From sequence record NC_104190.1: a DNA stretch of 64,000 bases. One strand, 5' to 3'. Under the pieces are notes generated by a model. It did not search any database, was not told the DNA's origin, and saw only the letters and a program-made list of their open reading frames with translations. The stretch is from Escherichia phage IME178. Every line of letters begins with the position of its first letter. Position 1 is the stretch's first letter. Made by a program: the position numbers and the translations under genes. Shown here piece after piece: positions 14,303 through 25,406 of this stretch.

Positions 14303-14328
14303 TGATTTTTATTAGCTGAACTATGATT

Positions 14329-14354
14329 ACCGAGTCATTTTGGCTCGGTTTTAT
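14329..14354 (+). terminator. weak rho-independent terminator
   Basis: accgag-tcattttgg-ctcggt followed by TTTTA. Confidence 0.4.
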
Positions 14355-14396
14355 CCGTACTCAAGACCAATGATAGCACCATCCGGAAAATTTTAC

Positions 14397-14425
14397 TTGC
14401 AGGATGCCCAAAATCTTGATATAAT
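14397..14425 (+). promoter_or_regulatory. T5-type early promoter
   Basis: TTGCAG-17-TATAAT with AT-rich leader TTGAATTGAGAGA. Confidence 0.5.
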
Positions 14426-14925
14426 ATTTATATTGAATTGAGAGACATTAGTAAAAATTGATTTTGCTAATTTTTCTTGTTTACAATCCGCGATACGGAA
14501 CAGTTAGGCTGCCCCATTAAGGGTTGTTTTAACTGTTACATGTTAGTTTTTAAACAAATAGTTAATAGAATACTTAGCGATCTGCGCCCCATAGGAACCC
14601 TGGTAAGGCCTCGAAGCAACCTAGTATGAGGTGGTTGTGAAGTGAGATGGGAGGAGTGAAAAACTACCGAGACGTGATTCTGTAAGTTATATTGCATCTA
14701 GTATGAGCTAGTATATGAAGCATTAGGTGAGCAAATCTGGCTTAGCGGCCATCCTCAAGGATTTGTGCGATATAGCAAAGCAGCAGCGCAGCGTGAAAGT
14801 GGAAGTTGCCACCCCACTTCAGTATTTGCGATTAATTTGTTGAGAAATTGACAGTAACAGTTGTTCTATTCTTTCTGAATAGTCCTAAAGAAAATTTATT
14901 TCATTTCCAACACAGGAGTATTGTT

Positions 14926-17715
14926 GTGTTCTCAATCCTACAAGGTCATGCAGGATTTCATCGCGATTTAGCCACAGGCAATTGGCGAGAAGTTAAAGCA
15001 GAAGATTATCTTTTTGCTAAAAGATTTTCCTCAAAGCATCCTGAAGGTAAACCAGCTTCAATGCCCTTCAAGTTTGATGTAATTGATGAAGTTGATCCTC
15101 AAACCCTAGTAGAAATGCTTCCTCTTATGAGACGTTTAACGTCTGACCCTCATATCGTTGCGGTACGAGGTAGATGTCTTGCACCTAAAAATAATGTGCG
15201 ACGTAAGAAGGGCAACTTTAATGTATCTAACCCAAGTCATATAATTGCAATGGACGTGGATGGTATTGTGGATACAGGTGGTTGTAACAAGTTTGATCTT
15301 GTTGGCATGGCTCGACATATTATTAGAATGTTAAATAGTATTAGTGAGGATATGTTTCCTCTTGATGCAGGGTTTATCGCTCATGCATCGTCTTCGGCTG
15401 GGCTAAAACCAGGTATCCGAATGCACTTAATACTAGAATCTAATGTTAAAGTAACTCAGGGTCAAATCAAATTCTTATTTACATCTATCAATGAAAGTAG
15501 TAGACAAAAGTATGGCTTTGATATTGCCGACTTAGCTTATTACTCTTCCGTACAGCTCCATTATTTTGCAGATCCGTTATTTACCGATGGTATAGTAGAT
15601 CCGTTTAAAGCGGAGGGTGCTTCACGTCTGGTATTTGTTAAAGGTTCTAAAGTAAATTTACCAAATAATCTGGTTGACTATGAAACAACTAGAGGTGAGT
15701 TTAAGGAGGAGTTTTACTCTTTACTCGATCAAATTAAAGGTAAAAAAGCTGCCTCTGATAAAGTAGAGGAAACTATCAGCGAACTAGAAGAAGCTGAGGA
15801 TGGGGTGTACTTGCGTATTATCCCCAAACTATACCATAGAGCATTAGAGGATGGTGTTGATTTTGCATGGCTAGAAAAAGAAATCCGTCCAGCCTTATCA
15901 GAATATATCGCAACTAAAGATAACAGTCGTAATATTCAAGATTACTTTAATAACGGTCGTAAACAGGCTCTGAAAGCATTTGTTAATAATTCTAAACGCG
16001 ATATACCTGATGTTTTAAAAGGTATTCCACTTAAAAAGCTAGAAACTAACTCCCTAGAAACTGATAACTTCTTGAAATTAAATACTGTGCCACCAGAAGG
16101 TTATATGACTTTTGTAAAAGCAAGTCTAGGTACAGGTAAAACCACGGCGGTTGTGCGTTGGTTAGATTCAGGAGTTATTAAAGGTAATTTCTTAGCAATT
16201 ACCAATACTAGAGCGCTGGTGTCTTCAAATGCTAAGAAATTCAGTGCAGGACAATATGATAAGTCTGTAGATATGCTTAATTTTAAGCGTGGTGCTATTG
16301 ACCGTATGTCCACAACTATTCACTCTTTGCATAAGTTCAAGAGTTTTATTGGTCAAATTGATGCAATCTTTATCGATGAATGTGATGCTGTAATGAATGA
16401 CCTGTTATTCGCCCCGGTTGTTAAACAACGTCGTGAGTGTATTCAGGTTCTTCGGGATATTCTTGCAACTGCAAAAATCATTATATTATCAGATGGTGAT
16501 ATTAGTGCAGAAACAATTGAAGCATATGGTTCCTTGATTGAGTTTGATAAACCGGTTGCATTTTATAATCACCACCGTAAGATGTTGTCAAAAGCTCATG
16601 CTTATGAGTTCCCTGATGAATCCAGTATTTGGGTTGCACTTCAGACTTCTCTAGAGATGGGTGAGAAATCTATTCTGGTATCTGACTGTGGCCCTGATGA
16701 GCTGAATGAGAAGGGCATGGCATTACGTCGTAATACGGGTGCGTTAGTTAAGGAAATCCACTCAAACTCTACGTCTGATGTAGATATTCGACGTATTCTG
16801 GATTACACAACTAATGAGCTAATTGACCAACAAATTGATTGCTTATTATGTAGTCCATCCGTAACTAGTGGTGTTGACTTCAACTATTTTGATAACGTAT
16901 TCGTTATTACTAGAACCAGCAACCAAGCGCCAAACATGCGTTTCCAAGCAATCAGGCGCGACCGTGGTGCTCAGAACATCTATTATTTTATTGATAAATC
17001 TACGAGTGGATTCTCCGCAGGTTCTGAACAATATAACATTGATGAAGGTTGGCTGGAGTTAGCACAGCAATTATACGCACGTCGCAGGGAGCTGGAATCT
17101 AGGAACTATACTAGTACTTTACGTTATTACTTGCTTGATCAGGGTGCAACTATTGATATTTTCAGTGAAAGCTGGGGAACTATCGAAGGTGCAGGCAAAG
17201 AGTATACAGAAGAGCGAATCAAAGCCATTTTGTATTCAACTCCTGATTATTGCGCTCCACGTCATGCGGATGCGTATGAAGCTAAACTACTTCTTGTTCG
17301 CTACTATCATCTTGAGTCTATTAAAGATGTAACAGTTGAGCATGTTGAACAATATATCAAGGATAAACCGAATGATCGAGCTGCATTCTTCCATAAAATG
17401 CACGAGATGTTCTGGGAAGATATTAAGAAGTGTTCAAACGTCACTATCAAACCATTCATAGAAGCTCTGAAAGGTAAGAAGAAAGATTTCTTCCTTAAAA
17501 CAGGTCAGAGTGCTAACCCAAAATATGCGAGAATGTATCTTGGTATGATGGGTATTGGTAAGGATATGAACACTGAAAATATTGTAGACTGGTACAGAAC
17601 CTATTGTAAAATCGAGTGTATGCCAATCCCATATAAGTTTATGACTGATGAGGAGAAACATATGCATGATGAAGCAATGGCAGAGCTAGGTGCTAGAAAT
17701 GACAGTGAAGAATAA
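14926..17715 (+). CDS. putative primase-polymerase (AEP-like)/P-loop helicase fusion; replication initiation protein
   Basis: N-terminal IAMDVDG (DxD) and AHASSSAGLKPGIRMH (S-G...H) resemble AEP prim-pol motifs; Walker A SLGTGKTT, Walker B IFIDECD; start set at GTG 14926 after AGGAG. Confidence 0.55.
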   Translation: MFSILQGHAGFHRDLATGNWREVKAEDYLFAKRFSSKHPEGKPASMPFKFDVIDEVDPQTLVEMLPLMRRLTSDPHIVAVRGRCLAPKNNVRRKKGNFNVSNPSHIIAMDVDGIVDTGGCNKFDLVGMARHIIRMLNSISEDMFPLDAGFIAHASSSAGLKPGIRMHLILESNVKVTQGQIKFLFTSINESSRQKYGFDIADLAYYSSVQLHYFADPLFTDGIVDPFKAEGASRLVFVKGSKVNLPNNLVDYETTRGEFKEEFYSLLDQIKGKKAASDKVEETISELEEAEDGVYLRIIPKLYHRALEDGVDFAWLEKEIRPALSEYIATKDNSRNIQDYFNNGRKQALKAFVNNSKRDIPDVLKGIPLKKLETNSLETDNFLKLNTVPPEGYMTFVKASLGTGKTTAVVRWLDSGVIKGNFLAITNTRALVSSNAKKFSAGQYDKSVDMLNFKRGAIDRMSTTIHSLHKFKSFIGQIDAIFIDECDAVMNDLLFAPVVKQRRECIQVLRDILATAKIIILSDGDISAETIEAYGSLIEFDKPVAFYNHHRKMLSKAHAYEFPDESSIWVALQTSLEMGEKSILVSDCGPDELNEKGMALRRNTGALVKEIHSNSTSDVDIRRILDYTTNELIDQQIDCLLCSPSVTSGVDFNYFDNVFVITRTSNQAPNMRFQAIRRDRGAQNIYYFIDKSTSGFSAGSEQYNIDEGWLELAQQLYARRRELESRNYTSTLRYYLLDQGATIDIFSESWGTIEGAGKEYTEERIKAILYSTPDYCAPRHADAYEAKLLLVRYYHLESIKDVTVEHVEQYIKDKPNDRAAFFHKMHEMFWEDIKKCSNVTIKPFIEALKGKKKDFFLKTGQSANPKYARMYLGMMGIGKDMNTENIVDWYRTYCKIECMPIPYKFMTDEEKHMHDEAMAELGARNDSEE

Positions 17716-22979: not shown

Positions 22980-23012
22980 TAAGGGGAGGGGGCTATGCTC
23001 CTTCCCCTTTTT
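22980..23012 (+). terminator. terminator-like hairpin
   Basis: aaggggagg...ccttcccctt stem followed by TTTTT. Confidence 0.4.
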
Positions 23013-23045
23013 GCATTTAGAAGGCACGAAAGCGTGCAAAGGAGA

Positions 23046-24518
23046 ATGACCTTGTTTAACGTGCAAGCTGTAGTGTTGAAGATGCTTCTAGCTTCTGAAC
23101 AGAAGCAAATAGCATTGGAAACATTCTCAAAACTGCATAAAGATCATTTTAATGACGCTTTCTCCTCAATTTACCAAGCCGTCCAGAATTATTATAAAAA
23201 ATATAACACAATGCCGTCCATTGACGCACTGATGCTTGAAGCTAATAGGAACGCCCGCCTTTCTCAAGCTCTAGTCGTCTTAGCTAACACTCAAATTCCA
23301 GAAGTGAGCATGGAACAGGCACTTGAAGTCCTAGAGGCTGAATATACACAGGATTTATTCCTGAAGCTTCTAGAAACAGACGTGCTTCAAGATTTAACAA
23401 TGCTGGATCAGGGAGAAATTCTCAACCGAGTTGCCTCCCTTCACTTAAAATTAGAAGAGAAAGTAACGAATACTGGAAAAGTATTCAACGCAGATAACAT
23501 GCGTATTTTCCAGAGAGAAGAAGATACCAAACTGAACCTAATCGCTCTTGGTATTTGTAATGAGTTTGACGCTCAAATTGGTTTAGCTCGCACAGAAACG
23601 TTACTGCTTGGTGGTTGGCGTGGTACTGGTAAATCCATTATCTGTTCAAACATACAGGTTCAGCAATATTTGAATGGAGATATTGCTCCATACTTCTCAA
23701 TTGAGATGAAAGAACATGAAGTATTTAGACGTAATCTAGCCATGTTAGCTGGTGTATCCGCACTAGCAATGCGTAATAATACTCTAGAAGGTGCAGCTCT
23801 GCTGAGATTAGCCAGAACTAGAGCTAGAATGTTTAATGGCGGTGAAGAGCTTTTCGATAACTTCGTTAAACAGTACACAATGGCTAAGATGAGTGATTTC
23901 TACGATATGGAGAGTAAACTAATAGAAGGGTATGAACTACATACTCCTATGATTATCGTTTATGACCCTGAACTGTCCATTACAACAGTTGATGTAGAAT
24001 TAAATAAATTAGTTGCTAGATATGGTGATAAAGTTACAGTAGCTTTATTGGACTATATTAACCAAACCCGACTTCCAGACTCTAAAACCATTGATATGTA
24101 TGACTGGAAAGAACAGATGGTTGTTAGCTCGTCTTTCAAATCTATCTGCCAGAAACATAACGTGGCTGGCGTAGCTCCTTACCAGATCGATCAAGATGGT
24201 AGAACACGTATGTCAAAGGGTATTCTTGATTCCGCAGACATGGCTGCTAATCTTAATGCTGCAAAAGCTGATAATGGTCAAGGTGCTATTATGTTTGACT
24301 TCGTTAAGACTCGTTCTTCTGATAGCGTGAAGTTTATGCCTAAAATGAACTGGGAAACCTTGCGGATGGATAACACTACCAACCTAGCGATGGAAGATAT
24401 ATCTCAAATGGAAGCTGAGTTCGTTATCCCTATTGAGAAGGATAAGCCGGCTCAACCTAAACGTGCTAAGAAAGACAAAACCGAAAATTCAACAGGTGAA
24501 CAGGCCAGCGATATATGA
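23046..24518 (+). CDS. DnaB-like replicative helicase
   Basis: Walker A GGWRGTGKS, FSIEM (DnaB FSLEM-like), LDYINQTR; start set at ATG 23046 (RBS aaaggaga) instead of 22995. Confidence 0.7.
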   Translation: MTLFNVQAVVLKMLLASEQKQIALETFSKLHKDHFNDAFSSIYQAVQNYYKKYNTMPSIDALMLEANRNARLSQALVVLANTQIPEVSMEQALEVLEAEYTQDLFLKLLETDVLQDLTMLDQGEILNRVASLHLKLEEKVTNTGKVFNADNMRIFQREEDTKLNLIALGICNEFDAQIGLARTETLLLGGWRGTGKSIICSNIQVQQYLNGDIAPYFSIEMKEHEVFRRNLAMLAGVSALAMRNNTLEGAALLRLARTRARMFNGGEELFDNFVKQYTMAKMSDFYDMESKLIEGYELHTPMIIVYDPELSITTVDVELNKLVARYGDKVTVALLDYINQTRLPDSKTIDMYDWKEQMVVSSSFKSICQKHNVAGVAPYQIDQDGRTRMSKGILDSADMAANLNAAKADNGQGAIMFDFVKTRSSDSVKFMPKMNWETLRMDNTTNLAMEDISQMEAEFVIPIEKDKPAQPKRAKKDKTENSTGEQASDI

Positions 24519-25406
24519 GTAGAATAACAGAACTACTTGATCTGAAAGGCATTGAATATAAAGACACAGGTGGGGACATCCTCATCTGTTGTCTCAATCC
24601 AGATCATGACGATAAACACCCAAGTTTGCGTATTGATCCTGAAACAGGTATTATGCACTGCTTGAGTTGTGGCTTCGGTAAAGGTATACCGAGCATTTAC
24701 CATTATTTTAATGAGACTCAGTACCGACAGTCCCCAAGGCTATCGCAAGTACGTAAAAAGATTTCAGAGATTAGGAATGGGTCAACGAATCTTGCAATTC
24801 CTGAATCTGCTTACCTTTTCGAAGGTGATTTCCGAGGTATAAGTTCTAAGACCTTGAAGAAATATTTTGCTTTCCAACACCAAGCAGACTGGGAAGGCAG
24901 AATTGTATTCCCAATCACAGATGCTGTTGGACGCAATATCCTATTTTTGGGTCGTTCTATAAACAGTTCTGCCCCTCCTAAATACTTAGTAAAACCAAAA
25001 CAAGTTTCACCACCAATTTTTCCTGTACGATATAATACCCCAATTCTTATTCTAGTTGAAGGTATCTTTGATATGCTGAATCTAGAGGATAATGGTATAG
25101 ACTATGCTTCTTGTTGCTTCGGTACACATCAGTTTACTTCAGATAACATTGCAGATAAGTTTAGTCCGTATATTATTGCTGGTGTTAAAGTTGTTGTTAT
25201 CTTACTAGATAATGATGCTTCTGGTAATAAAGCTGCACAAGCACTGGCTAAGCTAATTCGTACAAAAAACGCGTTTAACACCTGTAGTTGCTAACTTTCT
25301 TCTGCCTGAAGGTAAAGACCCAGGTGACTTAAGTAAAGAAGAAATTGATATGTTAGCAAAACGTATTGAAATTTTAGTTGCTGAATCGCTTAAAGATTTG
25401 GTATAA
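24515..25406 (+). CDS. DnaG-type DNA primase (zinc finger + TOPRIM), frame-interrupted
   Basis: CHC2 zinc finger CCLNPDHDDKHPSLRID...HCLSCGFGKG; TOPRIM LLDNDASGNKAA; C-terminal VVANFLLPEGKDPGDL lies in +1 frame after A6 run 25263-25268. Confidence 0.7.

Follow-up and report, generated by a model that had tools for sequence, protein, structure and literature searches.

The D2 protein of phage T5 is an ATP-dependent helicase that unwinds DNA both 3'-5' and 5'-3' (bipolar), with a Walker A lysine mutant as control (Wong, Sayers & Sanders 2013, PMC3632103). That study described the helicase core, a predicted helix-turn-helix (HTH, aa 308-329) and coiled coils; an archaeo-eukaryotic primase (AEP, primase-polymerase) domain was not recognised in it, and priming was not assayed. 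In HSV-1 UL9 (PDB 9hgj/9hgi) a helical C-terminal domain follows an SF2 helicase, but UL9 unwinds 3'-5' only and has no AEP domain, because the AEP of herpesviruses (UL52) belongs to a helicase-primase complex apart from it. In other systems, namely vaccinia D5/mpox E5, ASFV C962R PrimPol and pRN1 ORF904, an N-terminal AEP domain, a helical (PriCT-like) module and a helicase follow one another in a single chain. Fusions of an N-terminal AEP domain with a UL9-like SF2 helicase have also been described, in proteins of the All3500 family (Kazlauskas et al. 2018, PMC5862659) and in gp68 of phage PAU (Kazlauskas et al. 2016, PMC4889955). T5-like phages were not among the reported sources of these proteins, and neither phage T5 nor phages of Escherichia, Salmonella or Vibrio are named in the supplementary tables of PMC5862659. 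According to the 2016 survey, Rhodothermus phage RM378 is the only dsDNA virus that encodes a DnaG primase as well as an AEP. For T5 and the Demerecviridae, the literature searched yielded no description of an AEP or a primase-polymerase.

By sequence comparison, the window analysed here (64,000 nucleotides of Escherichia phage IME178, NC_104190.1) comes from a T5-like phage (Demerecviridae), and its open reading frame 14926-17715 is the orthologue of T5 D2. Indeed, the predicted protein shares 92% identity over 926 aa with T5 D2 (AAU05245), its start and its place in the genome agree with those of T5 D2, the gene is 97.8% identical at the DNA level to T5-like phages, and PHROG 3712 matches the protein from end to end. 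The GTG start is the one annotated in T5 and in phage Lindwurm. The length of 930 aa given in the initial annotation has to be corrected to 929 aa, since the stop was counted among the 930 codons. The gene and the parts of its product are as follows:

14926..17715, plus strand: D2 or 'replication origin binding protein' gene, GTG start, stop at 17713-17715, 929 aa
14914-14918: ribosome-binding site AGGAG of the D2 gene
14926..15675, plus strand: AEP (primase-polymerase) domain, aa 1 to about 250
15709..15996, plus strand: four-helix bundle, aa 262-357
16093..17025, plus strand: UL9-like SF2 helicase core, aa ~390-700
17038..17712, plus strand: all-helical C-terminal domain, aa ~705-929

Database labels for this family are inconsistent ('origin binding', 'DNA primase C', 'helicase', 'hypothetical'), because the AEP family has no Pfam or NCBIfam model, and the name 'origin binding protein' derives from the similarity to UL9. 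The label 'D2' has also been put, in other annotations, on a downstream 234-aa HTH gene. T5 D2 amber mutants were reported to make no DNA (PMC3632103), but the open reading frame behind this phenotype is not secure because 'D2' names two genes.

The AlphaFold model of the N-terminal domain (residues ~1-250) is confident (pLDDT 92.7) and shows the AEP catalytic fold, with an RRM-like core and a flanking alpha/beta module. When this model was compared with the PDB using Foldseek, about 45 of the top 50 matches were AEPs, with LigD-Pol at a probability of 0.97 (E 3.5e-3), followed by ASFV PrimPol, S-2L, Prim-PolC, UL52, CAPP, E5 and PrimPol. AEPs are the sole credible structural matches of the domain, and they include human PrimPol, mpox E5, HSV UL52, pRN1 ORF904 and LigD-Pol; the AEP domains of the D5/E5, C962R and ORF904 fusions are among its top structural matches. 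The four motifs characteristic of AEPs were located in the domain:

15253..15261, plus strand: AEP motif I, D110-V-D112, predicted metal ligands, at the end of strand E104-114
15388..15426, plus strand: AEP motif II, S155-S-S-A-G159...I-R-M-H167, the H167 side lying in strand E164-176
15529..15531, plus strand: AEP motif III, D202, invariant in 76 of 76 homologues
15625..15627, plus strand: AEP motif IV, R234 followed by a hydrophobic residue (R234-L), at the start of strand E235-238

Motif I stands in the context I-I-A-M-D110-V-D112, which fits the pattern hhhDxD/E on a beta strand, motif II fits the pattern sGxxxH (small residues, then His), motif III is the Asp expected behind the helix that comes after motif II, and motif IV corresponds to the Arg/Lys plus hydrophobic residue described in the flange strand of AEPs (PMC5862659). 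Among 76 homologues, D110, D112, H167, D202 and R234 are either invariant or conserved to at least 90%; H167 is replaced by Arg in a few remote ones, a change known for the DR0530-like AEP family. Among 30 full-length homologues, D110, D112, S155, H167 and D202 are invariant, as are G402, G404, K405, T406, D484 and E485 of the helicase, and R234 is again at least 90% conserved. Since these homologues share only 22-80% identity, the motifs are not chance matches. The homologues were obtained by an exhaustive representative search; a large word-indexed protein database gave only fragments of the D2 family.

The prim-pol-like N-terminus that the initial annotation had deduced from DxD and S-G...H motifs is therefore supported by the presence of both motifs (D110-V-D112 and S155-S-S-A-G159...H167), by a confident model for which nearly all of the top 50 Foldseek PDB matches are AEPs, and by invariant acidic residues. 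The structure search led to the AEP fold and not to a non-primase one, and none of the conserved acidic residues is missing. The sequence profiles, on the other side of the same check, yielded no curated AEP family. In brief, no AEP match was obtained in Pfam for the D2 protein or 8 relatives (E<=10) or for 44 remote homologues of the N-terminal domain (E<=1), nor in NCBIfam for the domain; PHROGs returned nothing for it beyond the full-length family; no AEP was found among PDB sequences by phmmer or by three profiles, including 41- and 76-sequence profiles; and hhalign gave no match to a single S-2L PrimPol AEP sequence. When the 41-sequence profile was aligned by hhalign with 18 All3500 sequences (supplement of PMC5862659), motifs I (DxD), II (H167) and III (D202) fell into one co-linear register, at a probability of 2.5% and a P of 0.018, which is not significant. 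Membership of the All3500 family (PrimPol-PV1 supergroup) was dropped because of this probability, and the domain is not filed there. As no sequence profile connects the domain with any curated AEP family, its assignment to the AEP fold is based on the predicted structure, the motifs and the architecture of the proteins that carry it.

As regards architecture, remote homologues carry the same N-terminal domain followed by PriCT_2, VapE, DUF5906 or Pox_D5/D5_N; a PriCT-2 domain and a D5/VapE-type helicase behind the domain is, as read from these sequences, the classic primase-helicase layout. The family is shared with a 'P4 family phage/plasmid primase' of Xylella phage Xfas53 and with metagenomic relatives (P0040-P0083): a tblastn search with a remote member retrieved Xfas53 (E 1e-17) and T5-like D2 (E 1e-14). 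In the Xfas53-type relatives the domain is fused to PriCT-2 and SF3 (D5/VapE/DUF5906) helicases and not to a UL9-like SF2 helicase. Judging from the model and the motifs, the N-terminal domain of IME178 D2 is a probable AEP-superfamily primase(-polymerase) domain that is apparently catalytically intact.

The four-helix bundle at aa 262-357 sits where PriCT domains stand in other primases. It is followed by the helicase core, in which these motifs were identified:

16120-16143, plus strand: Walker A, A399-SLGTGKT406
16372-16386, plus strand: Walker B, I483-DECD487
within the helicase core: SF2 motif VI, Q674..R678..R680

The residues G402-T-G-K-T406, D484-E-C-D487 and Q674/R678/R680 are invariant in the 30 homologues. 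At the sequence level, the similarity to UL9 is limited to the first RecA domain: Pfam Herpes_ori_bp (PF02399) matches with an E of 3.3e-7 and 29.2 bits (cut-off 20) over model positions 51-197 of 820 only, and a search of PDB sequences led to UL9 with an E of 2e-5, or 3e-8 with a profile. At the structural level, the top four Foldseek matches of residues ~390-929 are HSV-1 origin-binding protein (OBP, UL9) chains (E 1.4e-15 to 2e-13), ahead of other SF2 helicases (E ~5e-10), and the UL9 alignment, with 550-585 columns, exceeds the length of the helicase core alone. UL9 is the best match of this region both by sequence and by structure, although the two proteins share only ~14% identity. The helicase of IME178 D2 is of the UL9-type SF2; the designation 'P-loop helicase' given earlier was correct, in that Walker A and B are present, but imprecise as to the superfamily. 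In this respect D2 differs from the D5/E5, C962R and ORF904 fusions, the helicases of which belong to SF3 (D5-type) and with which no sequence-level similarity was detected, and follows the same domain logic as the All3500 proteins and PAU gp68. The AEP-UL9-like SF2 fusion is a kind already described, of which the T5-like instance is a new member. The C-terminal all-helical domain was also modelled with confidence (AlphaFold pLDDT ~90) and is a candidate DNA-binding (origin-binding) domain. Origin-specific binding is a feature of UL9; for the phage protein it is putative, and D2 may be origin-specific.

Furthermore, two replication genes of bacterial type are encoded downstream of D2:

22995..24518, plus strand: DnaB-like (SF4) helicase, Pfam DnaB_C (E 7.8e-9, 35.7 bits, cut-off 27)
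24515..25294, plus strand: DnaG-type primase, Pfam Zn_ribbon_DnaG (28.5 bits, cut-off 24.9), DNAG_N (28.0, cut-off 26) and Toprim_4 (32.8, cut-off 25)

The first is annotated 'DNA helicase' in Lindwurm. The second is shortened in the IME178 window by an apparent frameshift at ~25264-25269 (a 1-nt insertion in an A-run), and its last 46 codons are read in a different frame as far as ~25406; the ligase A gene also shows an apparent frameshift, at ~20848. The Demerecviridae as a family conserve a complete DnaG-type primase. With these Pfam matches, all above their cut-offs, the overall observation of the initial annotation holds: an AEP-like N-terminus and a helicase core are joined in one open reading frame, and DnaB-like and DnaG-like genes are present separately. 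The arrangement of D2, DnaB-like and DnaG-like genes is kept in Vibrio phage PG07 and Aeromonas phage TS3, the AEP domains of which are only 25-27% identical to that of IME178. With the AEP domain on the one hand and the retained bacterial-type helicase and primase on the other, the phage therefore seems to have priming machinery of two kinds, an unusual situation among viruses. RM378 is unrelated to IME178; the T5-like phages would add to it another, far larger group that combines AEP with DnaG.

Upstream of the D2 coding sequence, two further elements were recognised:

14397..14425, plus strand: promoter-like site read from the sequence, TTGCAG, 17-nt spacer, TATAAT
14488..14925, plus strand: conserved structured leader (~440 nt) outside the protein, with a covariation-supported RNA structure

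The promoter-like site coincides with a 'putative promoter' annotated in T5 and is conserved in Klebsiella, Pectobacterium and Epseptimavirus relatives. For the leader, RNAalifold predicted 77 pairs, 29 of which show compensatory changes; 88% of cells are paired, compared with 35-52% in slid controls, and none of 500 shuffles reached the observed score. The leader of Erwinia phage KEY was left out of the alignment and folded separately, because MAFFT misaligned the long-range helices once it was added; folded alone, it gives the same architecture. No Rfam family was found at E<=1 in region 14303-14925, and no tRNA anywhere in the window. A Providencia match to the upstream region was dropped, as only a promoter within a tRNA cluster was matched. 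Direct repeats in 14303-14925 were rejected as iterons because they are only short two-copy matches in a stretch that varies between relatives.

Taken together, an AEP primase domain (aa 1-250), a putatively PriCT-like bundle (262-357), a UL9-type SF2 helicase (390-700) and a helical C-terminus (705-929) probably make D2 a primase-helicase of the Demerecviridae. In the mechanism proposed for it, the C-terminal and helicase parts would load on phage DNA and open it, the N-terminal AEP domain would synthesise the initial primers on the single strands so exposed, and the DnaB-like helicase and the DnaG-type primase, with the PolA-type DNA polymerase, would then form the elongating fork primosome. 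On this reading D2 would have primase activity; the 2013 study of T5 D2 described a helicase with a predicted HTH (PMC3632103). A division of labour between D2 as origin initiator and DnaB/DnaG as fork primosome, with which the initial annotation had found the two systems consistent, would be plausible.

Other readings of the N-terminal domain have to be weighed against this primase-helicase. The domain could have some other, non-primase RRM-like fold (that of an HUH Rep nuclease or of a nucleotidyltransferase, for instance), its likeness to AEPs being fortuitous. This is very improbable: conservation falls on just the residues that mark an AEP (DxD, H, D, R), with their order and strand positions as in AEPs, AEPs dominate the Foldseek matches (~45 of the top 50), and the downstream partners in relatives (PriCT-2, D5_N/Pox_D5, VapE) are AEP partners. 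An identity as HUH/Rep nuclease was rejected, since the HUH motif and the catalytic Tyr pattern are absent and AEP matches prevail. The domain could also be derived from an AEP and be catalytically silent, serving in DNA binding, oligomerisation or recruitment; D2 would then be a helicase or initiator only, and DnaG would do all the priming. A parallel would be SV40 T antigen and papillomavirus E1, which bind their origins through inactivated domains of nuclease descent. Inactivated domains normally lose their catalytic residues, whereas all four catalytic motifs stay invariant or almost invariant in homologues down to ~20% identity, and are also kept where the domain, fused to D5/VapE helicases, is the sole primase-like module. 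Such a silent module is unlikely on these grounds, even though it would agree with the complete DnaG-type primase conserved in the family and with the fact that no primase activity of T5 D2 was reported (PMC3632103).

Two further readings concern the role of D2 and not the nature of its N-terminus. D2 could be a primase-polymerase-helicase of repair or restart, repriming past the natural nicks in T5 DNA, past lesions or at recombination intermediates, while other proteins initiate replication and prime the fork; such a role seems quite unlikely. A wider extension of the primase-helicase reading is possible but doubtful, namely that all Demerecviridae use a herpesvirus-like two-tier start, in which one polypeptide with an active AEP primase, PriCT-like module, UL9-type helicase and origin-binding domain would, as initiator, open and prime the origin before a bacterial-type DnaB/DnaG primosome takes over. 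The origin would then lie at or beside the initiator promoter and the ~440-nt structured leader transcript, and might be activated by transcription or by an R-loop. If this were true, T5 phages would break the 'either AEP or DnaG' rule as a large group that is open to experiment, and would be a model for a phage ancestry of herpesvirus UL9.

In summary, T5 is a classical model phage of which the initiation of replication is still poorly understood, and work on D2 has dealt with it only as a helicase of unusual, bipolar kind. T5 D2 can already be purified, which makes the primase reading directly accessible to assay, and T5-like phages are represented by hundreds of sequenced genomes, many of them of phages used in phage therapy. 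If the N-terminal third of the protein is an intact AEP primase, D2 would be a primase-helicase of the kind that starts the replication of poxviruses, ASFV and archaeal plasmids, and T5-like phages would carry both primase types, a combination found in only one virus by the global survey.

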